Source of the DNA: a virus
Lineage: Duplodnaviria; Heunggongvirae; Uroviricota; Caudoviricetes
DNA: 56,409 nt
Virus record (IMG/VR): IMGVR_UViG_2617270940_000006
Strand: one strand, 5' to 3'
In this document: positions 1 to 49,100 of the stretch, in pieces
How positions within the stretch are numbered: position 1 is the first letter of the stretch
Layout: the number at the start of each line of letters is the position of its first letter
Notes under the pieces: model-generated
What the model saw: only the letters and a program-made list of their open reading frames with translations
The model's database searches: none
Told to the model about the DNA's origin: nothing
Program-made: the position numbers and the translations under genes

Positions 1-906
1 CTATATTTCCAGACACCTGTTATCACTTAACCCATTACTGGCCTGCTGCCGCAGATATTCCCGTGGCGAGCGATAACCCAGTGCACTATGCGGATGCCAT
101 TCGTTATAATGCTCGAACGCCTCTGCAAGGTTCTTTGCTGCCGTTAACCCGTCTGGTTTAGGCATGATACTGATGTAGTCACGCTTTATCGTTTTCACGA
201 AGCTCTCTGCTATGCCGTTACTCTCCGGACTCCGCACCGCCGTGTTCTTCGGTTCAAGCCCCAACATCCGGGCAAACTGCCGTGTTTCATTAGCCCGGTA
301 GCATGAACCATTATCCGTCAGCCACTCTACTGGAGACGCCGGAAGCTCGTTGCCGAAGCGGCGTTCCACCGCTCCCAGCATTACGTCCTGTACTGTTTCA
401 CTGTCGAAGCCGCCCGTAGTGACTGCCCAGTGCAGTGCCTCACGGTCACAGCAGTCCAGCGCGAACGTGACTCGCAGTTTTTCTCCGTTATCACAGCGGA
501 ACTCGAACCCGTCAGAGCACCATCGTTGATTGCTTTCTTTCACGGCCACTTTGCCAGTATGTGCCCGTTTCGATGGCGGTACAGCGGGTTTTCGCTCAAG
601 CAACAGCGCATTCTGGCGCATGATCCGGTAAACACGTTTGGCATTGATCGCAGGCATACCATCAAGTTCGGCCTGTCTGCGAAGCAGCGCCCATACCCGA
701 CGATAACCATACGTGGGCAGCTCTCCGATAACATGGTGTATACGGAGAAGCACATCCGTATCATCTGAGTGACGGCTGCGGCGACCATCTTTCCAGTCAT
801 CGGTTCGTCTGAGAATTACGTGCAACTGCGCACGCGACACCCGGAGACAACGGCTGACTAAGCTTACTCCCCATCCCCGGGCAATAAGGGCGCGTGCGCT
901 ATCCAC
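1..906 (-). CDS. insD: IS2 transposase OrfB (InsD)
   Basis: 301-aa ORF; transposase catalytic core with DDE-type residues; matches recalled IS2 InsD. Confidence 0.9.
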
Positions 907-1229
907 TTTTTTGCACGCCCGTATTCAACGGCTTCTTTAAGGAGTTCATTTTCCATCGTTTTTTTGCCGAGCAGGCGCTGGAGTTCTTTAATCTGCTTCA
1001 TGGCAGCAGCAAGTTCAGAGGCAGGAACGACCTGCTCTCCTGCGGCCACAGCAGTAAGACTTCCCTCCTGGTATTGCTTGCGCCAGAGAAATAACTGGCT
1101 GGCTGCCACACCGTGTTGCCGGGCAACAAGGGAGACCGTCATTCCCGGTTCAAAACTCTGCTGAACAATAGCGATCTTTTCCTGTGTAGTACGCCGTCTG
1201 CGTTTCTCCGGTCCTAAGACATCAATCAT
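864..1229 (-). CDS. insC: IS2 OrfA (InsC)
   Basis: ORF beginning [13 protein letters not shown], overlapping insD as in IS3-family frameshift arrangements; the ORF-track start at 1274 is an upstream extension. Confidence 0.8.
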
Positions 1230-1320
1230 CTGCTCTCCAATGACTAGTCTAAAAACTAGTATTAAGACTATCACTTATTTAAGTGATATTGGTTGTCTGG
1301 AGATTCAGGGGGCCAGTCTA

Positions 1321-7470: not shown

Positions 7471-8655
7471 ATGAGCCTTTATGGTATTCAAATACCGAGG
7501 CTTATCAAGATATTACCTGCAAAAAACAGGGGTAAGAACGTGAGCGACTTGAAAGAATTACTGACCGAGCTGGATTTTGAGCAATGGCTCGATATGGAAG
7601 GGATCATCTACCGTCATGGTGGAGTCAGTACTCGCGGACGAGAGGTCAACATTAAAGAGTGTCCGGTATGCGGCAGCTCAAACTGGAAGGTTTATTTCAA
7701 CCTGACCAGTGGTGTCGGCAAATGCTTTGCAGGTGATCATCCCGAAGAGATTCAGTTCAATAAGCTGGTCTTCCTAAAGCATTACAGCGGCAAATCCCGT
7801 CGCGATTTTGAAGAGTACGTCCAGAACGCGCTGATCTCACAAGGTTGGGCGCCGAAGAAGGAAGAGATCGTGCTGGCCAGCAAGGTTGAACTGGAAGGAC
7901 CGGTAGCTCTCCCGCGCCATTACGAACTCCCCATTGACGGTCGTCTTCCTGATTATCTGGTGGAGCGCCAGATTTCCCCGGAGCTGGCCAAATACTTTGA
8001 TCTGCGTTACTGCGTCGAAGGCAAGCACGCATACGTCGATCCGTACACAGACCAGGTCAAAGGACAGGTATTCGATATGCGAATACTGATACCGGTTTAC
8101 GATCTGGATGGCGTGATGAAGACCTTCCAGGGTCGTGACATTACCGGTGCAGCAGAACGCCGGTATCTGTTCCCCATGCAGCTGCCAGCATCGGGTAAAT
8201 TTCTCTACAACGGCCACAATGCAGTCGGCAAACAGACTGTAGTTGTCTGTGAGGGGGCGTTCGATGTTATGGGGGTTAAACGAGCTATTTTTGATGAAGA
8301 AACATTACGCGATTACGTGGAACCGATAGGAACGTTCGGGATGCATCTATCTGGTAACACCACTCAGGATGCAGAAGATCAGTTGGGCGCGTTCCTGACG
8401 CTCAAGGCGCGTGGATTACGTAATGTGATTATGATGTGGGATAGTGAAAAGCAAGCTATACGCAACACGATGGCCGCAGCCAGGCGACTGACCAGTATCG
8501 GTCTTAATGTCAAAGTAGCGTGTTTGGGCGAGGAAGGACTCGATCCCGGCGATGCGACACCGGGGCAGATTATCAAAGCCTACTATTGCGCAAAACCTTA
8601 TTCACGACAGCTTGAACTTTTAAGCAAGGTAAAAGGCATAGCTGCATTAGTTTGA
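7471..8655 (+). CDS. DnaG-like primase (zinc finger + TOPRIM)
   Basis: CPVCGSS...C zinc motif and a TOPRIM-like VVVCEGAFD segment; start chosen at the ATG with the conserved context, not the upstream track start. Confidence 0.8.
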   Translation: MSLYGIQIPRLIKILPAKNRGKNVSDLKELLTELDFEQWLDMEGIIYRHGGVSTRGREVNIKECPVCGSSNWKVYFNLTSGVGKCFAGDHPEEIQFNKLVFLKHYSGKSRRDFEEYVQNALISQGWAPKKEEIVLASKVELEGPVALPRHYELPIDGRLPDYLVERQISPELAKYFDLRYCVEGKHAYVDPYTDQVKGQVFDMRILIPVYDLDGVMKTFQGRDITGAAERRYLFPMQLPASGKFLYNGHNAVGKQTVVVCEGAFDVMGVKRAIFDEETLRDYVEPIGTFGMHLSGNTTQDAEDQLGAFLTLKARGLRNVIMMWDSEKQAIRNTMAAARRLTSIGLNVKVACLGEEGLDPGDATPGQIIKAYYCAKPYSRQLELLSKVKGIAALV

Positions 8656-8788
8656 ACCAGTATTATCAACGGCTCGGAAGTGTCTAAATTATCCGTGGCG
8701 ATTCATAACCTTGCGGCTGCTCACCCCATCAAGAAGCATCTTTAACGCGTCACGGGACAATTTGTTGTATTTGCGTACCATTAATTTA

Positions 8789-9166
8789 CTACGCCGTACC
8801 ATACAATCTACGTAACGTGGCAACGACAGTAGATACGGATACCTCTCCGGTCGCAGCCCCCACAGTAAGCTCTGCCAGTTCTGGTGAATCATATACCTGC
8901 ACACCGTTACGGCGCAGAAATAACAACGCACTGTTTAGCGCGGTACGCTTATTGGCATCATTGAATATATGCCCTCTCGCAGTAGCCACCAGGTAAGTTG
9001 CGGAGACTTCGAAAAGGTCGGTAATCTCTTCATATGCAACTCTGGCCTGGACTCTCCCGATAATAGCCTCAGCTCTTCCCGAATCTGACATGCCTGGCAG
9101 GCCGCCGTAGCGGCTTATATTCGCATCATGAATTGCAGTAAGCTCTTCCGGTGATATATGCCTCAT
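8789..9166 (-). CDS. doc: Doc toxin (Fic/Doc family)
   Basis: 125 aa with [12 protein letters not shown]; near-identical to my recollection of P1 Doc. Confidence 0.95.
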
Positions 9167-9387
9167 TATCGGTTAACCAGTTTCTTATTGGTGGTGTCCA
9201 GAGTGTCAAACAGGGATGCGAATTCAGCATCCAGCGCCGCTTTTTTGTAGGCTTCGAAAGTGGCCTTGCTGACAATTACAGCTGGCTCACGGCCTCTACG
9301 GGTGATTTCAACCTCTTCTCCGGCTTCAACATTGTTGAGCACTTCGGTAAGATTGCTGCGTGCGGTACGGAAGTTAATAGATTGCAT
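9166..9387 (-). CDS. phd: Phd antitoxin
   Basis: [10 protein letters not shown]... matches recalled P1 Phd; stop overlaps the doc start. Confidence 0.95.
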
Positions 9388-9571
9388 AAACACCTCGTGT
9401 ACTCAATATGTGTACGCAATTATAGAGCTTAATTGCCCACTACTCCATCATTTTATCCAGTGCGCCTTATACCTCCACTCTGAAGGACGGGGTTTTAGGG
9501 CGCTCTGGATAAAAACACACGTACTTTCTCTCCGAAAGTACGTGAAAAGTAGCGACTAACCACCATGCTCA

Positions 9572-10582
9572 TTAGTCGTAGGATACGGCAAATATCGCCT
9601 GGCCTTGAACTTCCCCAGGCTGTAAAGCTTCCTCTTTCACGCGAACGTATTTTGCGGTAATCGGGAAGATGTACTGTTCCTGAATAGCCGCCATTTTAGG
9701 TAATCTGTTCATCAGGGTATCGCCCAGCTTTAACGGTGTCGTTGCATTACCATTGTAAATCTGGAACCCTACACCCTTAGCACCATCGGACAATGTATTT
9801 TTCAATATTGTTCCACTATCATCCCACACACCACGCTCAACTTTAAAAGTCACTGGATTAGTCGTGACGTTATAGACACTATCGCAATTTAGGACCAGAT
9901 CTACAGAACCTGATTTTGAGTTATTGGCAGATAGCATCTCACTTATCGTTGTTTCTGGTATTCTTATTTCGTAAGTCGGTTGCGAGAAACGACAGGTTGT
10001 GGGTTTGTGTTTAACAGTAATGGTTAGTTTTTGTTCGTAAGCATCGCCTTTATTTAACAACCCCAATAAATTGCACAATATCCATGAAAAAATATTTGAA
10101 CTGCATTGATTATCAGATAAAAAGTTACCCGCTGGCTTTTTTAATTCGAATGAATCCCCCTCTACCGCTTCACCATGATCACTTCTATATGTAGTTGGTG
10201 GTATATATGAGGCCGTTAACTTCAGTTGTTTATTATTAATGGTATCAGCAACAGAATAGGTTTTAGGCGACAGAAGCGAACCACTCGTTTCTACAGGAAA
10301 TCCATCAGCCTCAAGCTTTAATTTAATAAAAATAGACTTATTGCTGGAGCCATCTTTCATTTCAACAATATAGTCATCTAACGTTGTTGCAAAATACATC
10401 TTATCCCCCCTCGAGTTACATTCATAAGATCCTTGCAGGTTGGGATTAAAACTTACTATTGTTGAATCCCTTGTTAAGTCCAGTGTAATTGGTTGAGTTG
10501 CTGTCCAAGTTCCCTTAGGGGTACATTTCGCCTGCCCAAAAAATGGAATAATCAACAAAAACAAAAACCAATATTTCTTCAT
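9572..10582 (-). CDS. Fimbrial minor subunit / tip adhesin candidate
   Basis: Signal peptide (MKKYWFLFLLIIPFFGQA); distal gene of the chaperone-usher operon; start set 11 bp after the usher stop. Confidence 0.55.
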   Translation of the reverse strand: MKKYWFLFLLIIPFFGQAKCTPKGTWTATQPITLDLTRDSTIVSFNPNLQGSYECNSRGDKMYFATTLDDYIVEMKDGSSNKSIFIKLKLEADGFPVETSGSLLSPKTYSVADTINNKQLKLTASYIPPTTYRSDHGEAVEGDSFELKKPAGNFLSDNQCSSNIFSWILCNLLGLLNKGDAYEQKLTITVKHKPTTCRFSQPTYEIRIPETTISEMLSANNSKSGSVDLVLNCDSVYNVTTNPVTFKVERGVWDDSGTILKNTLSDGAKGVGFQIYNGNATTPLKLGDTLMNRLPKMAAIQEQYIFPITAKYVRVKEEALQPGEVQGQAIFAVSYD

Positions 10583-10592
10583 AAAAAATCCT

Positions 10593-13085
10593 TTAACGAC
10601 AAATATAAACTTTATTCTCTTCGATAACTTTATCAAAGGTAATAGTACAGAATTGTTCCTGCTGTTTATTAACCGAGACGCGAATCGATGCGGGAACATC
10701 ATCAGTGCGAATAAATATCCGACTTCCCTGTCCTACCAAGCCCACATTCTTACCGCTTTCATCTTCAACTTCATAACCGAACGATAATGGAGAACCATCC
10801 GGGCGCTGAGCAAGGAAATACCAGGGTTTACGTTTGTCAGTATCAAACTGCGTCATCACAACGGCCCCACGATAAGGAGCGGTGCTTTTACGGTTGCCCA
10901 GTAGTGCCACATCGCTTTGACTGTCAGAAGTATCCAGCATCAACGTGTTTTTACGATACGGCGTCAGGCTGTCATAAATAGCGTAACCTCGGCTATCCGT
11001 GCTCAGGTAACGATACCCCTGTACCGCAGCCCCATCCAGCCCCGGAGCATGGACGATGGTAAATGTATCTGAAAGTCTGGGAGCCAGTGCTATCCCGTCT
11101 GACCACGCGACTAAACCACCTTGAATATTACCACTTATCTGTTGATATTTTTTCGACTGGCTATAGCTGCCACCAATGGTAGCCACTGGCGCACGCCAAA
11201 TCAGATTTCCACCTGCTGTTGCTTCGCTGTCCTGTTGTTGATGGCTAAAGTTAGCCCCGTAGCTGAACTGATCACGGTTCCCAGCTACACCACTGAGGCT
11301 GGTAGTATTTGACTGGTAGCCGTCTTTATCAAATGTGGTCGAGTTAGAGATAAATAAATCTCGTCGTTTTTCGGTGATATTATCACGCCACGAGAAGGGG
11401 ATTGAGAAAAATAAGTTAATGCGTCTGTCTTCGCTGTTATCCTCATCGTATGTCTGGCTAACCGACAAGGTATAACTTAGACGTTCCCATGAGTTCGTAT
11501 AGCTTAGTTGGTAATTTTTCCCTGTCCCGCTACGTTCCCAGTAATCTCGCCATTGACCGCTGATCGCCAGATACCCCCAATTTTCCGGTAATGACTGGTT
11601 GATATTTAAAGAAAAGCTATTCTTGCGACCAAAATCATACTGGTAGTAGTTGGCAATGTCATAGCCTGAGTTGTCTTCTCGATTGTATCTATTTTTGTTA
11701 TTTGCCCATACATGATCGTTAAAAGTACGATAACCCCGAGAGGAATAACGCCAGGCCGCCAGAGAAAATTGTGTTCCGCTCTGAGAGAGATATTTATTCC
11801 AGGCAATCTGATAACTTTGACCGTTAAACACATCACCGTTGTCTTGCTTGCTGTATGAATGGGTAAAATCAACCGATATAGCACCAATCGGTGTATTCCA
11901 TCCTGTTCCAAGAACAAACGATGAGTAATTATCAGATAACAGCGTGCCGCCATAACCTGTCAGCAAATTGTTGAAACCATGCTTATAGCTTCCCTGGATA
12001 AAATCAGATTGATTGCTGGCTCCTTCAATATGACTACGTCCGGCTGAAAATTCATATTTAGAAACGCCAGGTTGCAACATATTTGGCACCGATGAATAAG
12101 GCACCCGATAGTACGACGTTGAACCATCAGCTTCTTTGACGATAACTTCCAAATCTGCCCCACCATTAGAAAGTTGCAAATCATCAATGGCGAATGGGCC
12201 TGGCGGTACTTCTTTCTGGTAAACCACAAAACCATTTTGTTCTATGGTGACGAGTGCGTTACTCTGGGCAACGCCGCGTACCACAGGAGTAAAATTCTGT
12301 TTAGAGTTCGGTAACATCTGCATATCGCGCCAAAGGCGCACGCCGCGAAAACGCACGGAGTCAAAAACATCAGAACCAGTATACATTTCACCTGCGCGAA
12401 ACGTGCCGAGAATTTGTGGAATTCCACGTTCCAGATATAGCGTGTTACTCTTCCATTTACCGCTGTTTTCGTCGCTTTTCGTATAATTGGCATTTGAATG
12501 CAGCTGCCAGCCCAGGAGATTTAACCCACTGTTCAGATTTAGATAGCTACTTTTATCATCTCCGCCGTTTTTATAATCACTGTAATACTGACTGGCATAA
12601 TAAGATGTATATAATGCGTTAATCCCGCGATCCCATGCTTCAGGCGGAACATAGCCATGTTCATATTCCAGAACATAGGCTTGGGGCACGCTTAATTTTA
12701 GGTTAAAATGCCCAATATCATAGTCGACGCTGCCTCCCTGGACAGCATCCCGAAGTGGTACACATTCTACGCCTTTATCGATACTAATTCCTTCAGTGAG
12801 GATCCCAATTTGCTTTAATTGCTCCATGGATAAACATGTTGCATTAGGGTCATCTTTAATATCAATATCATAGTGGCCACGCCATTGATTATTCAGATAA
12901 ACATCCATAGCGTAGATACCCGGCATCGGCTTATCACTATCAATATGGTAGTTAGAAATTTTCTCCCCATTTAAACCACCAATCATAAAATTGGTATTAA
13001 ACGTTTCACCCTTAGCCCATGTATGCGAAGTCGCTAATACTGACAGAATAGCCAGTGTAATAGAATTAAACTTTGACATAACCAA
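10593..13085 (-). CDS. Fimbrial outer-membrane usher
   Basis: 830 aa with signal peptide; size and position between chaperone and adhesin are typical of usher proteins. Confidence 0.9.
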   Translation of the reverse strand: MVMSKFNSITLAILSVLATSHTWAKGETFNTNFMIGGLNGEKISNYHIDSDKPMPGIYAMDVYLNNQWRGHYDIDIKDDPNATCLSMEQLKQIGILTEGISIDKGVECVPLRDAVQGGSVDYDIGHFNLKLSVPQAYVLEYEHGYVPPEAWDRGINALYTSYYASQYYSDYKNGGDDKSSYLNLNSGLNLLGWQLHSNANYTKSDENSGKWKSNTLYLERGIPQILGTFRAGEMYTGSDVFDSVRFRGVRLWRDMQMLPNSKQNFTPVVRGVAQSNALVTIEQNGFVVYQKEVPPGPFAIDDLQLSNGGADLEVIVKEADGSTSYYRVPYSSVPNMLQPGVSKYEFSAGRSHIEGASNQSDFIQGSYKHGFNNLLTGYGGTLLSDNYSSFVLGTGWNTPIGAISVDFTHSYSKQDNGDVFNGQSYQIAWNKYLSQSGTQFSLAAWRYSSRGYRTFNDHVWANNKNRYNREDNSGYDIANYYQYDFGRKNSFSLNINQSLPENWGYLAISGQWRDYWERSGTGKNYQLSYTNSWERLSYTLSVSQTYDEDNSEDRRINLFFSIPFSWRDNITEKRRDLFISNSTTFDKDGYQSNTTSLSGVAGNRDQFSYGANFSHQQQDSEATAGGNLIWRAPVATIGGSYSQSKKYQQISGNIQGGLVAWSDGIALAPRLSDTFTIVHAPGLDGAAVQGYRYLSTDSRGYAIYDSLTPYRKNTLMLDTSDSQSDVALLGNRKSTAPYRGAVVMTQFDTDKRKPWYFLAQRPDGSPLSFGYEVEDESGKNVGLVGQGSRIFIRTDDVPASIRVSVNKQQEQFCTITFDKVIEENKVYICR

Positions 13086-13096
13086 TCCCTGATAAT

Positions 13097-13777
13097 CTAT
13101 TTGGCAGTTTTTATTTTTTCACTCAAATAGTTTCCATGATCATCAATCAGAGTAACATTGTAATAGTTAACAACGGATGTCGTTTTGACAGTCTGATCTG
13201 ACCAGGGTGCCAGCAGTAGTGTCTCCTTATTAATTTTCGCATTCCCGGTTAATTCAGGAATGGTTATCCAGTTCGCTGAATTATTTTTTATGTTAATGCC
13301 TCTATCAACGGGTCTGATATTAATCCGGGAAAAACTCTCTTTATCGACTCTTGTTATACCCTTTGGGCGATAAATAAATTTGATACGATTTTGCATCGCG
13401 AATTTAATCAGATTCTTGCCTTCGTATTTCTCACTATTAGGTGGAATATCCAGTACATTAAGGAAGAACAGACTTTCGCGATCTTTAGGTAGAGTGTTCG
13501 CCAGTTGTTTAATTTTCAGTTGCTGTCCTTCACCCTTACTAACATGAACTACCGGTGGAGTCAGCACAAAAGGTACACTAATCTTTTCCGGAGGAAGGCT
13601 GGCATCGCCATCATCAATCCACGACTGAACAAGAGCACTACGCTCACCTTCATTCATTAACTGAACTGCAATCTCTTTTTTCTGTTCCGGATAAATAACG
13701 CGAGTGCCGTAAATATAGACACCGCCCCACGCAGATGGGACCGTTACGGTTAGTAAGAAGGCTATTAATTTTTTCAT
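13097..13777 (-). CDS. Fimbrial periplasmic chaperone (PapD-like)
   Basis: Signal peptide plus characteristic chaperone length and operon position; start placed at MKKLIAFLL. Confidence 0.85.
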   Translation of the reverse strand: MKKLIAFLLTVTVPSAWGGVYIYGTRVIYPEQKKEIAVQLMNEGERSALVQSWIDDGDASLPPEKISVPFVLTPPVVHVSKGEGQQLKIKQLANTLPKDRESLFFLNVLDIPPNSEKYEGKNLIKFAMQNRIKFIYRPKGITRVDKESFSRINIRPVDRGINIKNNSANWITIPELTGNAKINKETLLLAPWSDQTVKTTSVVNYYNVTLIDDHGNYLSEKIKTAK

Positions 13778-13832
13778 GATAACAATCCTTGCGATTGAAA
13801 ATCGGCGACCGAAGCCGCCGATAAACATCATG

Positions 13833-14381
13833 TTAATCTGTTACAACGGTCATTGTTATCGCAGAACTAACTTCGCCAGTACCCACATCATCAGCTGCTT
13901 TTGCGTATTGCGCCGTAAAATGCAACTCATATTCACCATTAGTAGCTGGTGGTAACTTAATAGGACTATTACCAGAAATCCGGTTGCTAGAATCAGTACC
14001 TTTCCCCAAAAAAACAGCGAAACCGACACCGCTAGCATCACCAGTATTGCGAGTAACATTTGAACCCGTTCCTTCAAATTGGGTGCTGGAGAAGGTAATT
14101 CTTGGTTCTTTTTCTCCGGGACATTTAACTTTTAGTGGTAAAGATGTTGTATTTGAATAAGTGGTAACGGGGGAGCCAACTTCTACATTTTCAAATTGAT
14201 CACGACCAATTTCGCTCATCGAAATTGTTGTATTCTCACTACCGCTCAGGAACTGACATGTAGTCTCTGTGACTTTACCGTTAATAGTTAACTGACCCTC
14301 TGTACTCCCTTCTGCTGCAAATGATCCTGCGCTCATAAAAAGAGATGCTAATACAGTAGCCGCAATAACTGAACGTTTCAT
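13833..14381 (-). CDS. Major fimbrial subunit
   Basis: 182 aa, signal peptide, Cys pair, first gene of the operon. Confidence 0.8.
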   Translation of the reverse strand: MKRSVIAATVLASLFMSAGSFAAEGSTEGQLTINGKVTETTCQFLSGSENTTISMSEIGRDQFENVEVGSPVTTYSNTTSLPLKVKCPGEKEPRITFSSTQFEGTGSNVTRNTGDASGVGFAVFLGKGTDSSNRISGNSPIKLPPATNGEYELHFTAQYAKAADDVGTGEVSSAITMTVVTD

Positions 14382-14511
14382 AGACTAATCCTTAACTAAT
14401 TTGCTTTAACTAAAAAAGAGATCGCAATCTCTTGCTAATAAATTACTAAAAATAAAAATGATAGAGCAATATAAAAGAATATTTTTTATTTTAATCAAAA
14501 ACATTTCCATG

Positions 14512-15537
14512 TGGATTGGCCCCTATATTTCCAGACACTTTTTATCGCTTAACCCATTACTGGTTCGCCGCCGCAGATATTCCCGTGGAGAACGATATCC
14601 CAGTGCACTGTGCGGATGCCATTCGTTGTAATGTTCGAAGGCCTCCGCAAGGTTCTTTGCCGCTGTTAACCCGTCAGGTTTTGGCATGATACTGATGTAG
14701 TCGCGCTTCATCGTTTTCACGAAGCTCTCCGCCATTCCGTTGCTTTCTGGACTACGTACCGCCGTATGTTTTGGCTCCAGTCCTATCATTCTGGCGAACT
14801 GACGCGTCTGATGAGAACGGTAGGCTGAACCGTTGTCTGTCAGCCACTCAACGGGGGATGTCGGCAGCCTGTTACCGAAGCGACGCTCTACTGCACCCAG
14901 CATGACGTCCTGCACGGTTTCACTGTCATATCCACCGGTACTTGCTGCCCAGTGAAGTGCCTCGCGCTCGCAACAGTCCAGCGCGAACGTGATCCGCAGT
15001 TTTTCACCGTTATCACAGCTGAACCCGAAGCCGTCGGAGCACCACCGCTGGTTACTTTCTCCAACGGCCACTTTCCCTCTATGCGCCCGCTTCGAGGGCG
15101 GTATTGCCGGTTTACGCTCAAGCAGCAGCGCATTCTGACGCATGATGCGGTATACGCGTTTGGCATTGATCACCGCCATGTCGTCAGTTTCTGATTGTCT
15201 GCGCAGCAGTACCCATACACGACGATAACCATAGGTGGGCAGATCGTCGATAACGGTATGGATACGAGCCAGCGCTTCAGTATCATCAGGCTTGCGCTTG
15301 CACCGACGATCCTGCCAGCCCTTCGACCGACGGGCCATGGCATGCAGTTGCGCACGTGAGACCCGGAGGCAACGACTGACAAGGCTTATTCACCATCCTC
15401 CGGCAACAAGGGCACGTGCGCTATCCACTTTTTTTGTCGGCCATATTCAACGGCTTCTTTCAGCAGCTCGTTTTCCATGGTTTTTTTGCCCAGCAGGCGC
15501 TGTAACCAACTGTCTGGAGATTCATGGGGCTAGTCTA
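14512..15537 (-). mobile_element. IS2-like element with internal deletion of the OrfA region
   Basis: Ends TGGATTGGCCCCTATATTTCC and GTCTGGAGATTCATGGGGCTAGTCTA resemble IS2 ends. About 1026 bp versus about 1.3 kb for IS2. Flanked by a 5-bp direct repeat, CCATG, at 14507-14511 and 15538-15542. Confidence 0.85.
14523..15338 (-). CDS. IS2-group transposase OrfB (InsD-like, diverged)
   Basis: 271 aa, collinear with the IS2 InsD at 1-906 but clearly diverged; upstream OrfA is largely deleted. Confidence 0.85.
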
Positions 15538-15608
15538 CCATGTTTATGGAAACATAACATTAAAATTATTTCGTAGTTTATTTTTTAGTTTAAATTGTCA
15601 AATTCATC

Positions 15609-15640
15609 GGTAATGCTACCAACTTATTGATTTAGTGTAT
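15609..15640 (+). mobile_element. IS1 terminal inverted-repeat remnant
   Basis: GGTAATGCTACCAACTTATTGATTTAGTGTAT resembles the recalled IS1 end (GGTGATGCTGCCAACTTACTGATTTAGTGTATG) and abuts the IS3-family end. Confidence 0.55.
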
Positions 15641-16058
15641 TGAATCGCCACAGGTTTAATAGACACCTCAGAGTCATTTAAGATGACTTAAAGAGAGGTG
15701 CCCATGAGCGGTAAGCGTTATCCCGAAGAGTTTAAAATTGAAGCAGTCAAACAGGTTGTTGATCGCGGTTATTCTGTTGCCAGCGTTGCAACACGTCTCG
15801 ATATCACCACCCACAGCCTTTACTCCTGGATAAAGAAGTACGGTCCGGATTCTTCCACTAATAAAGAACAGTCAGATGCTCAGCGTCTCCAGAAAGAGCT
15901 GAAGCGGGTTACCGACGAACGGGACATATTAAAAAAAGCGCGGCGTACTTCGCAAAGCTGTCCGACTGAGGTACGCCTTTATCCGTGACAACACCCATTG
16001 CTGGCCTGTCCGACTGCTTTGTCGGGTGCTGGATGTGCATCCGAGTGGTTTTTACGCC
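15641..16058 (+). mobile_element. IS3-family element, left-end fragment
   Basis: Terminal repeat TGAATCGCCACAGGTTTAATAGACACC, OrfA, an A6G slippery site near 15930 and about 30 codons of OrfB in the -1 frame, then backbone sequence. Confidence 0.75.
15698..15988 (+). CDS. IS3-family transposase OrfA
   Basis: HTH-containing OrfA (YPEEFKIEAVKQV...LKKA) ending at a frameshift window. Confidence 0.8.
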   Translation: MPMSGKRYPEEFKIEAVKQVVDRGYSVASVATRLDITTHSLYSWIKKYGPDSSTNKEQSDAQRLQKELKRVTDERDILKKARRTSQSCPTEVRLYP

Positions 16059-16156
16059 TGGCTTCTTCGTATAGCAGACTATTGCGCTCGATATAATAAG
16101 TAGATACTTACTTATTTTTCTGAAAGAATACTTTCATCTGTTAGTCAGGAGTTGCT

Positions 16157-16969
16157 ATGAAAGAAGAATTTCAGAAGTTAGTCTGCGACATCATCGACAA
16201 ATCCGGCGTAGAAATTGATACAGAAGAGCGCCAGAAGATTATCGACGAGGCGATCCAAACTGCGCTGGAGCATATCGCCACGTCCGTGAGCGCCGCACCT
16301 CTTTCGGAAGGCTCGAAATACATGCAGGTCTGGGTTCGTTTTGGAGAGTCCCCGGAGTTGCCAGGTGTTAAGCAGAAACGCGCGGCACTTGTGGCGTTCT
16401 CTCGCGAGATGAAAGACGCAACGGTCGAAGTGAGTACCGGTGCATGGTACGACGGTCGCATTGTCTACACTAATCAGACTGTCTACACCAATCAGACTGT
16501 GTGCGATGAAGGTGAACGGTTTGAGGATATTGTCGACGCAACTCTTCGCACGCTCAAAGTCAGAGCTGGTGTGGCGGATGACCCGTCCATCGCGGCGTTC
16601 CTGAGTATTGTCGAACAGTCTGAAGTTACCGAGCGCGTAACAGATCTGACAACTCCACCTGGTTTGCTGGAATTGGTGGTCAGTGGCGATATCAAAAAAG
16701 CCGTTGAGCGCATTCGTGAGGTGGAATACGGCATTATCTGCGATATGTGCCGCAGCGACTTAGACCTGGTGCGCATCATTGTCGACGCGGGTCAGGCATG
16801 TGACGGAGTACTCGCCAGTTTTGCAGGGCAAGTGGCTCGTCTGGCCAACGAATTACCCATGATTAAACAAGAAGCCAAATCCTACGCCGTCCACCATGCC
16901 AACGATTTACTGGACCCATACCGGTTCGAAGCTGCTCAGGACAAAATGACTGGCTGGGCGACCTGGTAA
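16157..16969 (+). CDS. Hypothetical protein
   Basis: 270-aa ORF preceded by a class A motif and followed by a GC hairpin plus T-run at 16988-17008; contains an 18-bp tandem duplication. Confidence 0.5.
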   Translation: MKEEFQKLVCDIIDKSGVEIDTEERQKIIDEAIQTALEHIATSVSAAPLSEGSKYMQVWVRFGESPELPGVKQKRAALVAFSREMKDATVEVSTGAWYDGRIVYTNQTVYTNQTVCDEGERFEDIVDATLRTLKVRAGVADDPSIAAFLSIVEQSEVTERVTDLTTPPGLLELVVSGDIKKAVERIREVEYGIICDMCRSDLDLVRIIVDAGQACDGVLASFAGQVARLANELPMIKQEAKSYAVHHANDLLDPYRFEAAQDKMTGWATW

Positions 16970-19403: not shown

Positions 19404-19709
19404 ATGAGCAATTTGACTTCCTTCGACTGGTGGCTGGCAACCTACCTTGTTGCGGCCGGCTTCGGATTTGCCTTTTACGTTGGTCAGTTAATCGTAAAGC
19501 TACTGCTGATAAGATTCGCCAGCCATAAACGCATAGACGACGGTCTGTGGCGTCTGGGGTCCCTGTTAGAGACGCATTACGGCGAACTCAAGGAAAACGA
19601 AACTATCACTATTCAAGCGAAGCGTTTTACCGCCATCATCACGAGAACTCCGGAACAAAAGGGGAGCCTGATCAAAAAGATAGCAACTAAACGCATTACA
19701 GATAGATAA
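19404..19709 (+). CDS. Small membrane protein
   Basis: 101-aa ORF with an N-terminal TM helix; overlaps the preceding small ORF by ATGA. Confidence 0.4.
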   Translation: MSNLTSFDWWLATYLVAAGFGFAFYVGQLIVKLLLIRFASHKRIDDGLWRLGSLLETHYGELKENETITIQAKRFTAIITRTPEQKGSLIKKIATKRITDR

Positions 19710-20452
19710 GTATTTACTTACTTATCTAATATGTATAAGATCACTTTGTTTTCGTTGAGATGCGACTGTTTGAACGTTAAATATAACTGCAAACGAAGAT
19801 GCATACCTGGCAGTAGCCTAAGAAGCCAAACACCAGCGAGGTCAGTTTCCAGCCTCGTCACCAAAATGGGACACACTGAGCGAGTGTGATTGCAGAACGC
19901 AGAATAGGGCATATTGCACCATCCATGCCCTATTCAATGAAGTAACAGAATGGGCGGTTGGTTTCATCATTCCATTCACCCATCCCGGTTTCAGCTGACC
20001 GTCCATTCTGTTACGTCATTTCCATTACTTATGTCGTTTATACTTGGGTTAAAAGCGGCGACGTAACCCGGCTGACTTGGTTAGTCAGCACATAACGTTG
20101 AGATCACTGATTTTTCTTAAAATCATACAGGCGATTCCACATAGCTGTAGCGACTGATCAATATGTTGGGTTGAACATTAATCGGTTCAGTGATCTCAAC
20201 GTTGTGAAAGCAGGATTAATTAACCCTCTAGTGAAAACATTGTTGCCTTTATTGCCCCTGGCTTCACAACATGTATGATTCCATACATCCAATAAGATTG
20301 AAGAATCTAACGGCAATCAACCACCGAGAAAGATTCCAGATCTTCGCTCATATGAGCGAGCCACATACCTCGTCTGGCACTAACGTAAAGTGCAAGTTGC
20401 GGGAAAGTTTCTGGCTGCCTGGTTGTCCATAAGCTAGTACCGCCGCGAAAAT

Positions 20453-25897: not shown

Positions 25898-25992
25898 TAG
25901 TTTTACCCTTAAAAATAAGTAACTACTTACTATACAGCCTAATATATTTCTATAAGATATACCCCACAAACGACAAACAGTAAGGAAAAAAC

Positions 25993-36826: not shown

Positions 36827-36887
36827 TACTTGAAAGTATATAAGTACTTACTTATCATTTCTACACCCAAACGACAAAAGGAAACAC

Positions 36888-37088
36888 ATGATTAAGGGTT
36901 ATCTCATGGCTGTTTCAGCAGTGGTATCAGTCTGCTTTATTTACGGTTTACTGGTTCCATCGCTTATATCAGCTAAAAGCGATCTGGCCTTCTTTATCGG
37001 ACTTGCCATCGCTTTAATCTTCCCGGTTGCCTTGTTAAAAGCTGGCCGCAGGTATATCAACTCACTCAATAAAACTAAGGAGAAGTAA
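36888..37088 (+). CDS. Small membrane protein
   Basis: 66 aa with two hydrophobic helices; conserved AAAGGAAACACATG start context. Confidence 0.4.
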   Translation: MIKGYLMAVSAVVSVCFIYGLLVPSLISAKSDLAFFIGLAIALIFPVALLKAGRRYINSLNKTKEK

Positions 37089-37091
37089 GTA

Positions 37092-37283
37092 ATGAAGAAA
37101 GGTTTACTGGCGGTGGCTTTGGCTGCTATTTGCACAATGGGTCTGACCGGCTGCGATCGCGTGGAACCGGGATACGTTGGCATTAAGGTAAACAAATTGG
37201 GTGAAGACAAAGGTATCGGTGAAGTTGTCGGCGTTGGCCGTCAGTGGACTGGTCTGAATACCGAGCTGTACACCTCTCTTTAA
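37092..37283 (+). pseudogene. Lipoprotein gene truncated at an IS remnant
   Basis: Lipobox LTGC; the sequence after it resembles the start of an SPFH/band-7 domain (EPGYVGIKV). The last codons and stop are supplied by IS-derived sequence. Confidence 0.4.
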
Positions 37284-37357
37284 GTCATCTTAAATGACTC
37301 TGAGGTGTCTGTTAAACCTGTGGCGATTCAGTCTATTAAACCTGTAGCGATTCACTT
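37262..37357 (-). mobile_element. IS3-family left-end remnant (inverted), with an extra 25-bp terminal-repeat copy
   Basis: The reverse complement of 37262-37331 matches 15641-15699; 37332-37357 repeats the terminal 25 bp. Confidence 0.7.
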
Positions 37358-37515
37358 TATGGTGTCATAAACTTAAATCTAGCGCCGGGTAGAACAAGTT
37401 AATCGAACGATGTAGCGGCCATTTAGGCGTTACAGAAAGAACAGAATTTTAAATTTATAGTGAAGCCGTTGCAGCAACTTTGTGGGGTGCAACCAACACT
37501 GAACAGGAAAAGAAA

Positions 37516-39945
37516 ATGGATCATAGTGTACATAACAAGCTCATCTCATTTATTTGGAACATTGCCGACGACTGTTTACGTGATGTGTACGTTCGCGGTA
37601 AGTACCGCGATGTGATTTTACCTATGGTGGTATTACGACGTTTAGATACGTTACTTGAACCCACCAAAGAAGCCGTGCTTGAAGAGGTCAAGTTCCAAAA
37701 AGAAGAGATGCAAGCCACGGAGCTTGATGATGAACCATTGAAGGCGGCTAGTGGTTATGTTTTTTACAATACATCTAAATGGACCCTGAAATCCCTGTTC
37801 AACACCGCAACGAATAACCAACAGATATTACTCGCCAACTTTGAAGAGTACCTGCTTGGCTTTAGCGATAATGTTAAAGAAATCATTGAATGCTTTAACC
37901 TCAAGTTGCAAATTCGTCACATGGCCTCAAAGCAAGTCCTTCTTGATGTCGTCGAAAAGTTTGTTTCCCCTTACATCAACTTAACTCATGAAACGGTCGA
38001 AGACCCAGATGGCAACAAGATGCCAGCCCTTACTAACCTGGGTATGGGGTACGTGTTCGAAGAGTTGATCCGTAAGTTCAACGAGGAGAATAACGAAGAA
38101 GCCGGTGAGCACTTTACACCTAGGGAAGTGATTGAGCTGATGACACACTTGGTTTTTGACCCAGTGAAAGAGCAGCTACCATTGACCATGACCGTTTACG
38201 ACCCTGCGTGTGGTAGCGGTGGTATGCTCACTGAATCTCAAAACTTCATTGAAGAGAAATACCCGAACGACAGCCGAGATATTTACCTTTACGGCAAAGA
38301 GATCAATGACGAGACCTACGCGATTTGTAAATCGGACATGATGATCAAAGGTAACAACCCTGAGAACATCAAGGTAGGCTCAACCTTGTCTACCGACGAG
38401 TTTGCGGCTTCTCGCTTTGACTTTATGTTGTCTAACCCGCCATACGGTAAGAGTTGGGCGTCTGAACAGAAGTACATTAAAGACGGCAGTGATGTGATTG
38501 ACCCGCGTTTTAAGGTTAGCCTGAAAGACTATTGGGGAAATCTCGAAGTGGTGGATGCCACGCCACGTTCGAGTGATGGCCAGCTGCTTTTCTTAATGGA
38601 GATGGTCAACAAGATGAAAGATCCGAGCGTAAGTCCATTAGGCAGCCGGATTGCCTCTGTTCATAACGGCTCATCGCTCTTTACCGGTGATGCGGGCAGT
38701 GGCGAAAGTAATATTCGTCGCTTCATCATTGAAAACGACATGCTAGATGCCATCGTTCAGTTACCTAATAACCTGTTCTATAACACTGGCATTACCACTT
38801 ACATTTGGGTGTTGAACAACAATAAACCTGAGGCGCGTAAAGGTAAGGTGCAATTAATTGATGCCAGCTTGCTCTACCGTAAGTTGCGCAAGAACTTAGG
38901 TAACAAAAACTGCGAATTTGCGCCTGAGCACATCACGGAAATTACCGATACTTACCTCGCGTGTAAGGATGTTGAAAGAGCACTGGATGCAAACAATGAT
39001 CCTGTTGGCATCGCCAGTAAGGTATTCAGCAATGACGATTTTGGCTACTACAAAGTCACTATAGAGCGCCCAGATCGCCGCAAAGCCAAGTTTACTCAAG
39101 ACGCAATAGCCCCACTGCGTTTTGATAAGCAACTTAGTGAAGTGATGGAGTACGTGTACGCAGAGCACGGCGAACGTGTTTACGAAAAAACTGGCTACGG
39201 GTCAGCTCAGAAAAAGAGCTTCTTAAAATCCATCGAGAAAGACATTCTTTCTTGGTGTGAAGATAACGACATCAGTCTCAATGCTAAGGCTAAGGCCAAA
39301 CTGCTTGATGTGAAACACTGGCTGGCGCTAAAAGCATTGCTTGAAACTGCACAAACGCTGATGGCTGACATCGGTAGCATTGAATTTGATGACTTCAATA
39401 GCTTTAAAACCCAAGTTGATAAATCGCTAAAAGCCCATGCTATTAAGCTTTCAGCACCTGAGAAAAATGCCATTCTTCACGCGGTGAGCTGGTATGACGA
39501 AACCGCCAAGAAAGTGGTTAAAAAGGTAGTTAAATTAACGGGTGATAAATTAAACGACCTGCTGGAGCGCTATGAGTGTGAAGTCGCTGACTTGCCAGAT
39601 TTTGGTTATTACCCCGTTCCTTCAGCAGAAGGCGGTAAAAAAGGCGAGTATATCACTTACGAGACCAATTCAGACCTGCGAGATACAGAATCTGTTCCAT
39701 TAAAGCAAAGCATTTACCAGTACTTCCTAGATGAAGTGAAGCCTCATGTCGATGAAGCATGGATAAACCTAGATACGGTAAAAATTGGCTATGAAATCAG
39801 CTTCAATAAGTATTTCTACCGTCATAAACCGCTGCGTAGTTTAGAAGAGGTCGCAACCGACATCATCAACCTAGAACAAAAAGCCGAAGGTCTCATTGCG
39901 CAGATATTGGGTGTTAAAGTGGCGGAAGCTCAGGGAGAAGCGTAA
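37516..39945 (+). CDS. hsdM: Type I restriction-modification methyltransferase subunit (HsdM), unusually long
   Basis: Motif I DPACGSGGML and motif IV NPPYG; about 810 aa from the ATG at 37516. Confidence 0.9.
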   Translation: MDHSVHNKLISFIWNIADDCLRDVYVRGKYRDVILPMVVLRRLDTLLEPTKEAVLEEVKFQKEEMQATELDDEPLKAASGYVFYNTSKWTLKSLFNTATNNQQILLANFEEYLLGFSDNVKEIIECFNLKLQIRHMASKQVLLDVVEKFVSPYINLTHETVEDPDGNKMPALTNLGMGYVFEELIRKFNEENNEEAGEHFTPREVIELMTHLVFDPVKEQLPLTMTVYDPACGSGGMLTESQNFIEEKYPNDSRDIYLYGKEINDETYAICKSDMMIKGNNPENIKVGSTLSTDEFAASRFDFMLSNPPYGKSWASEQKYIKDGSDVIDPRFKVSLKDYWGNLEVVDATPRSSDGQLLFLMEMVNKMKDPSVSPLGSRIASVHNGSSLFTGDAGSGESNIRRFIIENDMLDAIVQLPNNLFYNTGITTYIWVLNNNKPEARKGKVQLIDASLLYRKLRKNLGNKNCEFAPEHITEITDTYLACKDVERALDANNDPVGIASKVFSNDDFGYYKVTIERPDRRKAKFTQDAIAPLRFDKQLSEVMEYVYAEHGERVYEKTGYGSAQKKSFLKSIEKDILSWCEDNDISLNAKAKAKLLDVKHWLALKALLETAQTLMADIGSIEFDDFNSFKTQVDKSLKAHAIKLSAPEKNAILHAVSWYDETAKKVVKKVVKLTGDKLNDLLERYECEVADLPDFGYYPVPSAEGGKKGEYITYETNSDLRDTESVPLKQSIYQYFLDEVKPHVDEAWINLDTVKIGYEISFNKYFYRHKPLRSLEEVATDIINLEQKAEGLIAQILGVKVAEAQGEA

Positions 39946-41267
39946 TGGAGCGTTTAGCATTGATGCCGAAATATGAGGATTATGTAGATTCTGGAGTTGA
40001 ATGGTTAGGGGATTTACCGAGCCATTGGGACGCAGTAAAAATGAAGTTTCTTTTCAAAGATACGTCGATGAAAAACAAGCCTAACGAAACTTTATTATCT
40101 GTTACACAAAGTCAAGGTGTTGTTCCCAGAGAGTGGGTAGAAAACAGAATGGTTATGCCATCTGGCAATCTAGAAAGCTTCAAGTTCATTGCAAAAGGTG
40201 ACTTTGCTATAAGCCTTCGTTCCTTTGAAGGTGGTTTGGAGTATTGTCATCATGATGGAATCATAAGCCCTGCTTATACGGTGTTAAAAACTAAGAAAGA
40301 TTATCTACTTGCAGGATATTACAAATATTTGTTTAAAAGTCAGACTTTTATTTCAGAGTTACAAACATCGATTGTAGGGATTCGTGAAGGAAAAAACATC
40401 AGTTATGAGGAGTTGCAATATTCACTTCTTCCTATTCCGGCTGAAGAAGAACAAACCCGTATCGCCAACTTCCTCGACAAGAAAACCGCTCTAATCGACG
40501 AAGCGATTTCGATCAAAGAGCAGCAAATTAGCCTGCTGAAAGAGCGTAAGCAGATCATCATCCAACAGGCGGTGACCCAAGGGCTTGATCCCAATGTGCC
40601 AATGAAAGACTCCGGTGTGGATTGGATTGGAGATATTCCAGAGCATTGGGAAGTTGTGCCTCTAAAAAGGTTGGCGGTCTTGAGCCCTTCTGTGAAAGTT
40701 TCAAATAGAAAGTCCAAAGAATTAGTTACTTTCTTAGCGATGGAAAAGGTTTCAACAGATGGATTTATTGATCAAGATACATTAATGCCTATATGTGATG
40801 TGAGCCAAGGTTTTACGGTTTTTAACCGGGGGGATGTGATTGTTGCAAAAATTACACCTTGCTTTGAAAATGGGAAATCTGCTTGGCTTAACAATCTTCA
40901 AACTGAGTTTGGATACGGCTCAACCGAGTTTCACGTTTTAAGATGTGGTCAGAGAATTATAGGAAGTTTTCTCTACTTAATCGTTAGTTCGCCCCTTTTT
41001 CTTAATGCCGGTGAGGCTATGATGACTGGTTCAGCTGGTCAGAAGCGCGTGCCTAGTTCATTTATCCAAAACTTTCCTACCGCAATTCCCGGAGTTGCAG
41101 AGCAAGAAAAAATAGTATCAAAGGTAAAAGAGCTGTTTTCACAGATTGATGTTGTTGTGGCTTCTACGGTAAATCAAATCGAAAAGCTCAAAGAATACAA
41201 AACCACCCTGATCAACAGCGCCGTGACAGGAAAAATAAAAATCACCCCGGAAATGGTTGAGCAATAG
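39945..41267 (+). CDS. hsdS: Type I restriction-modification specificity subunit (HsdS)
   Basis: 440 aa with two repeated target-recognition-like halves and conserved central/C-terminal helices; start overlaps the hsdM stop. Confidence 0.8.
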   Translation: MERLALMPKYEDYVDSGVEWLGDLPSHWDAVKMKFLFKDTSMKNKPNETLLSVTQSQGVVPREWVENRMVMPSGNLESFKFIAKGDFAISLRSFEGGLEYCHHDGIISPAYTVLKTKKDYLLAGYYKYLFKSQTFISELQTSIVGIREGKNISYEELQYSLLPIPAEEEQTRIANFLDKKTALIDEAISIKEQQISLLKERKQIIIQQAVTQGLDPNVPMKDSGVDWIGDIPEHWEVVPLKRLAVLSPSVKVSNRKSKELVTFLAMEKVSTDGFIDQDTLMPICDVSQGFTVFNRGDVIVAKITPCFENGKSAWLNNLQTEFGYGSTEFHVLRCGQRIIGSFLYLIVSSPLFLNAGEAMMTGSAGQKRVPSSFIQNFPTAIPGVAEQEKIVSKVKELFSQIDVVVASTVNQIEKLKEYKTTLINSAVTGKIKITPEMVEQ

Positions 41268-41276
41268 GACGCGAAT

Positions 41277-42440
41277 ATGTTCACGGTAAATCATCAGGCC
41301 AATAGGATTAGTCCGGTTAAGACTAAGAGATTCAGTGAGTTGGGCTTTACTGAGCGCAAAAATCTTCAGGAATGGTTGGCACACGAGCCTTCCGCACTGG
41401 GTGAAGAGCTGCTGATTATTCAAAAAGAGTTCGATGGCTTTGATGACACCCGTGAACGCTTAGATTTACTGGCACTGGATAAAGATGGCAACTTGGTCAT
41501 TATTGAAAACAAGCTGGACGACAGTGGCCGCGATGTGGTGTGGCAGGCGCTTAAATATGCCTCTTACTGTGCCAGTTTAACCAAAGCGCAAATCGTTGAA
41601 ATTTACCAGCAGTACTTAGACCGCTATGAGCATGTAACAGGAGAGGTTGACTTGTTTAATACCCCTGCAAGTGCCTCTGCTAGAATATGTGAGTTTTTGG
41701 ATGCGCCCGATCTCGATGAGTTAAAGCTCAACCTGGGTAACAGCCAGCGCATTATGTTAGTTGCGGCAAACTTTCGCAAAGAAGTGACCTGCACCGCGCT
41801 GTGGTTATTGGGTCAAGGCATTAGCATTGCCTGCTTCAAAATCACGCCTTATTCACTGGGTGAACAGCTACTGATTAATATTGACCAGATCATTCCAACG
41901 CCAGAAGCGAAAGAGTTGATGATCGGCATTAATGCCAAGGAAGCGGAAGAAAAAACCACCGAAGTGGTACTAAAAAACCGCCATACCGTGCGTCGCAAGT
42001 ACTGGGAGCGTGCCTTAGAGGCGTTTCAGAAAAGCGCTTGCCAACTCTATAACAACATTAGCCCAAGCAAAGATCATTGGTTATCAGCAGGCTCAGGGCT
42101 AAGTGGATGTCCGTATAACCTGATATTTCTGCAAAAAGAGCTTCGAGTAGAGCTTTGGATCAGCCGTGGGGTTACCGAAGAGAATAAATACCTTTTTGAT
42201 TTGTTGAGTCAGTCCAAACAAGACATTGAGCATACTTTTGGTGCAGAACTTGAGTGGATGAGGCTGGATGAGAAGAAATCTTGCCGTATCCAGTTTTCGA
42301 CCAAAGCTGACGGGTTTAACAAAGAGACTTGGCCCCAAGCGGTTGCGTGGCACTTAGAGCAGATGACAAAGTTAGAAAAAGCCTTGAAAGGACCGCTGCA
42401 AAAAGCGGCTGAAGCAATGAAACAGAAGAATTTTGATTAA
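41277..42440 (+). CDS. PD-(D/E)xK-like protein embedded between hsdS and hsdR
   Basis: 387 aa; N-terminal D...ENK arrangement (DLLALDKDGNLVIIENK) suggests a restriction-endonuclease-like fold; function unknown. Confidence 0.5.
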   Translation: MFTVNHQANRISPVKTKRFSELGFTERKNLQEWLAHEPSALGEELLIIQKEFDGFDDTRERLDLLALDKDGNLVIIENKLDDSGRDVVWQALKYASYCASLTKAQIVEIYQQYLDRYEHVTGEVDLFNTPASASARICEFLDAPDLDELKLNLGNSQRIMLVAANFRKEVTCTALWLLGQGISIACFKITPYSLGEQLLINIDQIIPTPEAKELMIGINAKEAEEKTTEVVLKNRHTVRRKYWERALEAFQKSACQLYNNISPSKDHWLSAGSGLSGCPYNLIFLQKELRVELWISRGVTEENKYLFDLLSQSKQDIEHTFGAELEWMRLDEKKSCRIQFSTKADGFNKETWPQAVAWHLEQMTKLEKALKGPLQKAAEAMKQKNFD

Positions 42441-42454
42441 GGGAATTTACAATT

Positions 42455-46173
<3,719 letters not shown>

Positions 46174-46353
46174 CCACTTCATCTACACTCGCGGCATTGG
46201 AAGCAAAGATATGGTCGTCTGGCACCTGATGCACATTGATAAGGCTATCAACCACACGCTGGAGAAGTTCTTTCCACCAGCCTGAACACAATGATTGTGC
46301 GCCTTATAGCGCCCATTAAGATAGATAAGTACTTACCAACAAGGAGAAAACAC

Positions 46354-46629
46354 ATGAAGACTTTGGTTCGCATTTCATCTAGTACCGACTATGACGTTTA
46401 CCCGTTGTTCATGATCAAGTGCGACGGGCTGAACGATGAAGAAATTCAATCGGCAATTGAACGCAATCTAGTTGAATACACAGGAATGGATGCGGATTCT
46501 ATTTATATCGATGATGACGGTGTTTGTTGGCACAACGGTAGCTGCTGGTACGTCGACGACACAATGCTGGTAAGCGATGAAGACGCGGCCCATCTTGAGC
46601 GCATTTTGGGTATCAGCACTTTTGAGTGA
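46354..46629 (+). CDS. Hypothetical protein
   Basis: 92 aa from the ATG with the conserved start context; first gene of a short coupled operon. Confidence 0.4.
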   Translation: MKTLVRISSSTDYDVYPLFMIKCDGLNDEEIQSAIERNLVEYTGMDADSIYIDDDGVCWHNGSCWYVDDTMLVSDEDAAHLERILGISTFE

Positions 46630-47392: not shown

Positions 47393-47398
47393 TAACAC

Positions 47399-47998: not shown

Positions 47999-48001
47999 GG
48001 G

Positions 48002-49057: not shown

Positions 49058-49100
49058 TCCAAATGTCTCTTTTTATTCGACGGCTTGGGTGCCTTTACTG

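Follow-up and report, generated by a model that had tools for sequence, protein, structure and literature searches.

In the passages searched of PMC7969092, pECOH89, pHCM2 and pMT1 are named among the SSU5-related phage-plasmids, and in those passages and the ones searched of bioRxiv 10.1101/2025.09.12.675607 the SSU5/pHCM2 group is described as having a conserved phage and replication backbone, together with variable accessory genes that are brought in via IS elements and transposons. The slot next to the primase gene that is considered here, and the IS stubs contained in it, are not mentioned in the passages searched of these two sources. The DNA analysed in this work, a stretch of 56,409 nucleotides that from here on is called the window, resembles the group in both respects, i.e., in the conserved backbone and in the accessory genes bordered by IS sequences. 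Its closest relatives are non-mobilizable E. coli plasmids of 106-115 kb of the type IncFIB / rep_cluster_488, pECOH89 among them. More distant relatives are Salmonella enterica plasmids of 106.7 kb and Yersinia pestis plasmids of ~100 kb, which, going by host and size, we take for pHCM2 and pMT1. Identities to those relatives are 82-99% in the regions of primase, helicase, ligase, SPFH and repA, and the backbone is syntenic as well as similar; judged by its sequence, the window derives from a phage-plasmid of E. coli that belongs to the SSU5/pHCM2 group.

Replication and partition functions are also found in the window, including a parA-like gene, a DnaB-like helicase, a primase, a ligase, dnaE, and repA with its iterons. 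Beside repA, positions 47398-49602 are densely filled with iteron-like repeats of 21-23 bp, which are present in both orientations and have the core CCACTGTAGTGAGTA; this repeat field is presumably the replication origin of the plasmid. The window begins inside an IS2 copy (1-1320) and ends inside an IS1B copy (55967-56409), the latter of which pYUXYEH3934-1, the closest relative in the databases, lacks at the equivalent location.

Two accessory islands with IS sequences at their borders are located in this backbone (Table 1). For the first of them, of roughly 7 kb, we consider it likely that the IS debris at its edges owes its borders to short-homology recombination, probably in the form of two deletions that followed an IS-flanked insertion.

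Table 1. Features of the two accessory islands and of their IS borders (positions in the window)
Feature	Position	Strand	Evidence or content
ISEhe3-like right end with its terminal repeat, nt 1179-1229	8655-8705	+	51 bp, 100% to the D1 copy
Cargo bracketed by two IS pieces, roughly 7 kb	8706-15608	.	ORFs; Pfam Fic/DOC, Fimbrial, Usher, PapD_N, rve
phd/doc	~8708-9424		ORFs; Pfam Fic/DOC
Chaperone-usher fimbrial operon	9572-14381	-	ORFs; Pfam Fimbrial, Usher, PapD_N
IS2-like relic	14512-15537	-	~80% to IS2; both terminal repeats
AT-rich spacer, 71 bp	15538-15608		
32-bp IS1 left-end (IRL) remnant, slightly divergent IS1	15609-15640	+	Cut off by the IS3-family left end
ISEhe3-like left part, nt 1-438	15641-16065	+	Left terminal repeat, degenerate OrfA, damaged A7 slippery site, first ~44 OrfB codons
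ISEhe3(-like) nt 1-60	37271-37330	-	60 bp, 1 mismatch to the D1 type (59/60)
Tandem second copy of the left-repeat terminus, 24 bp	37331-37354	-	Directly outside the 60-bp piece
Type I restriction-modification island	37355-45549	+	hsdM 37516-39945, hsdS, DUF4268, hsdR to 45472
IS911 nt 618-1249	45550-46181	+	C-terminal two-thirds of OrfB (rve), intact right terminal repeat

IS stubs and cargo next to the primase gene

The right-hand border of the first island is a nested structure, in which a 32-bp IS1-like repeat directly precedes the left repeat of an IS3-family element at 15641, as the initial annotation of this DNA had proposed. The 32 bp (GGTAATGCTACCAACTTATTGATTTAGTGTAT) match the left terminal repeat (IRL) of IS1B at 29/32 positions and its right repeat at 23/32, and they fit the pattern of an IS1 terminal repeat (GGTRATG...CCAACTTA...TGAT). 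Within the window this stub occurs a single time when up to 3 mismatches are allowed, the chance expectation being 0; apart from it, IS1 homology is confined to the distinct IS1B copy with which the window ends. With a length of 32 bp, the stub does not include insA/insB between two repeats. An exact-match scan of 185,579 representative genomes yielded 0 matches to a full IS1 variant with the exact end of the stub, and therefore it is called IS1-like solely on its 29/32 identity. Upstream of the stub the sequence differs between the window and the sister plasmid pYLPI6a, which indicates that the tip of the stub is a real boundary. The stub is directly followed by the very first base of the IS3-family left repeat, an arrangement that is most simply consistent with the insertion of an IS3-family element into IS1.

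The IS3-family sequence that follows, hereafter the head, aligns to nt 1-438 of a complete element of 1229 bp in the chromosome of E. coli D1 (L002 2505-3733), which is flanked by TAT on both sides and is labelled by PGAP as 'IS3 family transposase, programmed frameshift'. Compared with this D1 copy, the head shows 8 mismatches, an in-frame deletion of 12 bp, and the loss of 1 nt next to the frameshift site at the A-run. The homology extends to 16065, so that the end previously placed at 16058 was 7 bp short; the description of the element as stopping about 30 codons into OrfB was fair, given that the break lies 32 codons past the OrfA stop and ~44 past the frameshift site. In the surviving OrfA ORF (15704-15988) an HTH_Tnp_1 domain is detected with Pfam (E = 5e-17). 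The slippery region has the 1-nt deletion and an rve domain of OrfB is not present; the head is a remnant of an IS3-family member and is predicted to be non-functional. The in-frame deletion of 12 bp in the OrfA remnant, at 15885/15886 (GCCGAGATCCGC), is not shared by any of the 24-27 sister plasmids with this stub. A scan for promoters and terminators across 15400-16300 gave nothing above the shuffled expectation.

When the complete reference was aligned to the whole window, a right end of the same element was found that is not included in the initial annotation. This tail (8655-8705) starts at the stop codon of the primase gene, and by its alignment it is the true complementary partner of the head. 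The tips have the imperfect terminal inverted repeats of the 5'-TG ... CA-3' type, with TGAATCGCCACAGG... at 15641 on the left and ...CCGTGGCGATTCA at 8705 on the right, and both match the complete reference element. The identity to the D1 copy is ~98% for the left piece (indels ignored) and complete for the right one. The D1-type copy is 88.8% identical to the copy annotated as 'ISEhe3 orfA/orfB' in Shigella phage SfIV, and for this reason the element is called ISEhe3-like; in ISfinder terms, the D1-type copy may be a separate isoform or element.

On the + strand the order is primase, IS tail with the tip of the right repeat, cargo, tip of the left repeat with the IS head, and the next backbone gene. 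Both stubs thus have their terminal repeats directed inward to the cargo and their broken interiors toward the backbone. A 3-4-bp target-site duplication is not present at the stub tips, where TAT is found to the left of the left repeat and TAA to the right of the right repeat, and none was found at any of the tips where it was sought, those of the ET300 plasmid included; this argues against recent transposase action, including a mobilisation of the backbone in trans. Neither does the arrangement correspond to a composite transposon, i.e., two complete IS copies with a target duplication outside, since the IS pieces are stubs with outward interiors and are joined to the backbone at microhomologies.

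The cargo comprises a phd/doc pair, a chaperone-usher fimbrial operon and, between this operon and the IS1 stub, an IS2-like relic that is ~80% identical to the IS2 copy at window 1-1320 and has an internal deletion of ~305 bp that removes most of orfA. The phd/doc pair is ~92% identical to that of plasmids of ~90-120 kb that also carry a PdcA gene. We take pdcA to be a gene of P1, and the phd/doc plasmids that carry it to be P1-type. This likeness suggests, at the sequence level, that the two groups of phage-plasmids have exchanged DNA. No donor was found that has a complete IS next to phd/doc; similarity to the phd/doc relatives, which are devoid of the IS, sets in 3 nt past its tip.

Joints between the stubs and the backbone

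The slot that holds the first island lies between the primase gene and a backbone ORF of 270 aa at 16157-16969. In the IS-free relatives pJH51-3 and pECOH89, the primase gene is followed by a TPR/Sel1 gene, a hypothetical gene or small ORF, and then by the 270-aa ORF; the two backbone points that carry the IS pieces in the window are 1796 bp apart in the closest relatives without an IS, and the block formed by the IS tail, the cargo and the IS head would have replaced those 1796 bp of backbone. In more distant relatives the primase gene directly adjoins the 270-aa ORF. A scheme derived from these distant relatives, in which the plasmid integrated into an IS or an IS-circle product without loss of backbone, was dropped because the closer IS-free relatives have the 1.8-kb TPR/Sel1 segment and the bases at the junctions are native.

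A three-way alignment revealed that 11 nt at the left joint (8655-8665, AACCAGTATTA) are common to the IS and to the native backbone. Comparison of the backbones of pJH51-3, pECOH89 and pLR-46_1 indicated that the IS-free relatives read TGA followed by ACCAGTATTAGTCAC; the window follows the backbone to ...GTTTGAACCAGTATTA and the IS from AACCAGTATTATCAACGG... onward. Likewise, at the right joint 10 nt (16056-16065, GCCTGGCTTC) are common to both; here agreement with the IS lasts until ...ACGCCTGGCTTC, and from GCCTGGCTTCTTCGTATAG... onward it is the backbone that is matched. The 10-mer of the right joint is part of a terminator hairpin located after the small ORF, and its diverged homologue in pECOH89 identifies it as native backbone. 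Two short matches in pLR-46_1, ACCAGTATTA and GCCTGGCTTC, were considered as eroded IS remnants and rejected, being native backbone too.

These strings of 11 and 10 nt are the only 10-mers that the 1229-bp IS and the 1917-bp backbone region have in common, and the chance of a random overlap of at least 10 nt at a joint is ~1e-5. That the joints are placed in the only identities of at least 10 nt that were available argues for short-homology (illegitimate) recombination and not for the action of a transposase. The joints are common to 23-27 independent complete E. coli plasmids and therefore are not an artefact of assembly. It had been proposed that repeated IS-mediated rearrangements reshaped this plasmid; IS activity has clearly reshaped the replicon, but the decisive joints with the backbone are at identities of 10-11 nt instead of being the work of a transposase.

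Just upstream of several backbone genes, the motif TAAGTA-N2-3-TACTTA was observed, with 4 exact matches (16097-16110, 19707-19720, 25916-25929 and 36841-36854) versus 0 expected, and looser copies near 5223, 46320 and 50706. It is likely a shared promoter or operator of the phage-plasmid, for which it is a candidate. The copy at 16097 was left intact by the joint at 16065/16066.

The restriction-modification island and its borders

The second island carries type I restriction-modification genes. pYUXYEH3934-1 is 100% identical to the window over the two stretches compared (37000-37700 and 45300-46400), and the annotation of the island comes from this plasmid. At this place the SPFH gene of the IS-free relatives is complete, with DUF2591 and a hypothetical gene after it, and ~1.47 kb of this sequence is replaced in the window.

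The inverted copy of the IS3-family left end that had been noticed near 37.3 kb does exist; nevertheless, it occupies 37271-37330 and not 37262-37331 (60 instead of 70 bp), and the tandem copy of 24 bp next to it had been missed. On the backbone side, the 60-bp piece meets an SPFH gene that is truncated, with an overlap of 5 nt, CACCT (37271-37275), which is weakly significant. It is 100% identical to nt 1-60 of the ISEhe3 copy of SfIV, and by this identity it may come from a sister isoform rather than from the type represented by the head at 15641. The same double end is found upstream of a nearly identical hsdM in the E. coli chromosome ECCNB12-2 (L004), where it is cut at nt 46 by an IS911-like element; the other chromosomal matches listed also start at window 37285, with 99.8% identity, L004 being the one inspected in detail. 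Since the double end accompanies hsdM in a chromosome as well, it probably moved together with the type I restriction-modification genes. In turn, a group II intron (ltrA pseudogene) has split the IS911-like element of ECCNB12-2 (L004 505-3995).

The right border is formed by a fragment of a different element. An OrfB core had been assigned to 45487-46173 and described as having no ends; it actually spans 45550-46181 and includes a complete right terminal repeat. This fragment is 98.9% identical over 632 nt to an IS911-family copy (L003), contains the Pfam rve domain, and is named 'IS3-like element IS911 family transposase' by PGAP in sister plasmids. Its nucleotide identity is within the range of at least 95% used for IS911, and it has the terminal repeat; of IS911 the left half is missing. 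The homology to the backbone starts again at 46181, where the IS911 tip abuts the backbone, and so the right joint of the island is as expected from an ordinary IS911 insertion.

In the initial annotation the IS3-family fragments at 15641, 37.3 kb and 45.5 kb were taken as parts of one scattered element, with the left fragment and the OrfB fragment as nearly complementary parts. Their coordinates in the reference elements do look complementary (nt 1-438 and nt 618-1249), and both belong to the IS3 family according to their HTH_Tnp_1 and rve domains; however, alignment to complete references places 15641-16065 and 37271-37330 in the ISEhe3-like element and 45550-46181 only in IS911, in whose right repeat it ends. 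IS911 and the ISEhe3-like reference have ~53% global DNA identity and no significant blastn match, their OrfB proteins are 35% identical, and their terminal repeats differ. In addition, it is the tail at the primase gene that represents the right end of the ISEhe3-like element. The OrfB fragment thus comes from a different IS3-family element, the outcome that the initial annotation had named as refuting its grouping. The derivation of all three fragments from one element is hence rejected, and in the corrected map of scars two distinct accessory islands, bordered by IS sequences of their own, take the place of a single scattered element.

Sister plasmids and the history of the slot

The primase-proximal slot was compared among sister plasmids. 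In the 23-27 complete plasmids mentioned above, the left side, the right side and the cargo are as in the window. The ET300 plasmid has both joints as in the window, and a DprA/RecQ-like cargo with no similarity to that of the window. In p1585m1_B the IS tail is present and the right joint is kept, with the stub eroded to nt ~310-438 (L017 ~16400-16530), and DprA/helicase genes cut by IS1B are found as cargo. The left side of pYLPI6a is unaltered backbone followed by the inverted 13-nt tip of another ISEhe3-like copy (L006 3350-3362), and its right side has the IS1 stub, the IS head and the right joint; sulfatase genes and IS5-family remnants are located between them. Finally, pLR-46_1 has a TPR-type backbone with an internal deletion and a 17-nt remnant of the right repeat (L008 2478-2494), and has neither IS head nor cargo. 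Judging from these scars, the slot is a recurrent IS target and graveyard.

From the observed identities, coordinates, junction sequences and conservation in relatives, we infer the following order and number of events. An ISEhe3-like element would have transposed into an IS1 copy, giving rise to the nested end. An IS-flanked segment would then have been inserted in the primase-proximal slot, a step for which a donor with full-length flanking IS copies was not found. Most likely, this was followed by two deletions by slipped mispairing, each of which would have taken the transposase-coding part of one IS copy and the adjacent backbone; the right-hand joint was probably formed first. Afterwards, the stubs would have been immobile and the DNA between them would have kept changing by lineage. 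A stepwise history is supported by the right joint of pYLPI6a with an unaltered left backbone, by the right joint of p1585m1_B with its eroded stub, and by the ET300 plasmid with both joints and other cargo, although pYLPI6a, instead of being an intermediate, could have arisen by recombination at a later time. The sequence would be the same after two deletions as after one replacement; the two deletions are favoured, and a single replacement seems less likely.

Such a single event could have been the capture of a circular donor, containing one ISEhe3-like copy or the segment between two, that was broken inside the IS and joined to a gapped backbone by microhomology-mediated end joining or by an 'ends-out' short-homology replacement, so that both joints were formed at once. 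The circular permutation of the stubs (tail, cargo, head) is that of a circle opened inside the IS, both joints use the best microhomologies available, and this plasmid family encodes its own ligase, 5'-3' exonuclease and RecA-like recombinase. We nevertheless regard a one-step capture as unlikely, given that pYLPI6a has the right joint without the left one and that independent IS tips are found in the slot, i.e., the inverted tip of 13 nt in pYLPI6a and the remnant of 17 nt in pLR-46_1. Repeated insertions and subsequent separate deletions account better for both of these findings.

The orientation of the repeats, which are intact and face outward relative to the backbone, brings in another explanation, in which the transposase of a resident full-length copy would treat the whole backbone as a giant IS, circularise it and re-integrate it into new DNA, so that the cargo would change exactly at the IS tips. 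The cargo indeed differs right at the repeat tips among the window, the ET300 plasmid and p1585m1_B, and matches to a query with this IS fragment were obtained in 2,088/5,426 complete E. coli genomes, a number that is an upper bound for the IS because the query also held IS2-like and backbone sequence. Against this, target duplications of 3-4 bp were absent from the tips in every lineage inspected, and homologous exchange via the stubs of 425 bp and 51 bp, or via the flanking backbone, is a simpler explanation for the change of cargo. To our knowledge, the copy-out of a segment of roughly 100 kb is unprecedented for the IS3 family. For these reasons mobilisation in trans is considered very unlikely, and the insertion followed by two deletions is retained as the preferred history.

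The cargoes seen in the slot include fimbriae with phd/doc, a DprA/RecQ-like helicase, and sulfatase genes. A tentative idea, which we regard as rather doubtful, is that the dead stubs and the adjoining conserved backbone act as homology anchors, so that the slot would be a cassette-exchange site in which IS-flanked segments are swapped in repeatedly by homologous recombination with resident full-length copies. If this were true, dead IS would have been turned into a device for the acquisition of cargo in a phage-plasmid family. Apart from this idea, the locus is a natural example of IS neutralisation, in which short-homology recombination removes the transposase gene and leaves the terminal repeats, and it marks a recurrent cargo slot in the SSU5-group phage-plasmids of E. 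coli, which attract interest because they carry genes for defence, adhesion and resistance. The locus is ordinary IS debris and its biology is known; the microhomology joints are clear but unsurprising, and the understanding of IS biology is unchanged.

Regarding the known elements, the pieces next to the primase gene resemble ISEhe3 in their terminal repeats (TGAATCGCCAC...), in an OrfA with HTH_Tnp_1, in the A-run frameshift site, and in the element length of 1229 bp. They differ from a complete ISEhe3 in that 476/1229 bp are left, distributed in two separated and circularly permuted stubs, and in that the catalytic domain of the transposase is missing. In contrast with IS1 (IS1A/IS1B), the IS1-like stub keeps the terminal 32 bp only, with 3 substitutions relative to IS1B. 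The fragment at the second island shares with IS911 the right repeat TGAAGTGGTCAACAAAAACTGGCCACCGAGTTAGAG, whereas, unlike the complete element, it has no left repeat, no OrfA and only the last two-thirds of OrfB, and therefore cannot transpose. As for the joints, classical work by Albertini and colleagues in 1982 reportedly dealt with E. coli deletions whose endpoints lie in direct repeats of ~5-15 bp, and alternative end joining is said to have been described by Chayot and colleagues in 2010. The location of both joints of the first island in direct identities of 10-11 nt is similar to that of short-homology deletions; however, in contrast to the classical cases, one partner of each repeat lies here in the IS and the other in the backbone, and the net result is an 'inside-out' IS bracket.
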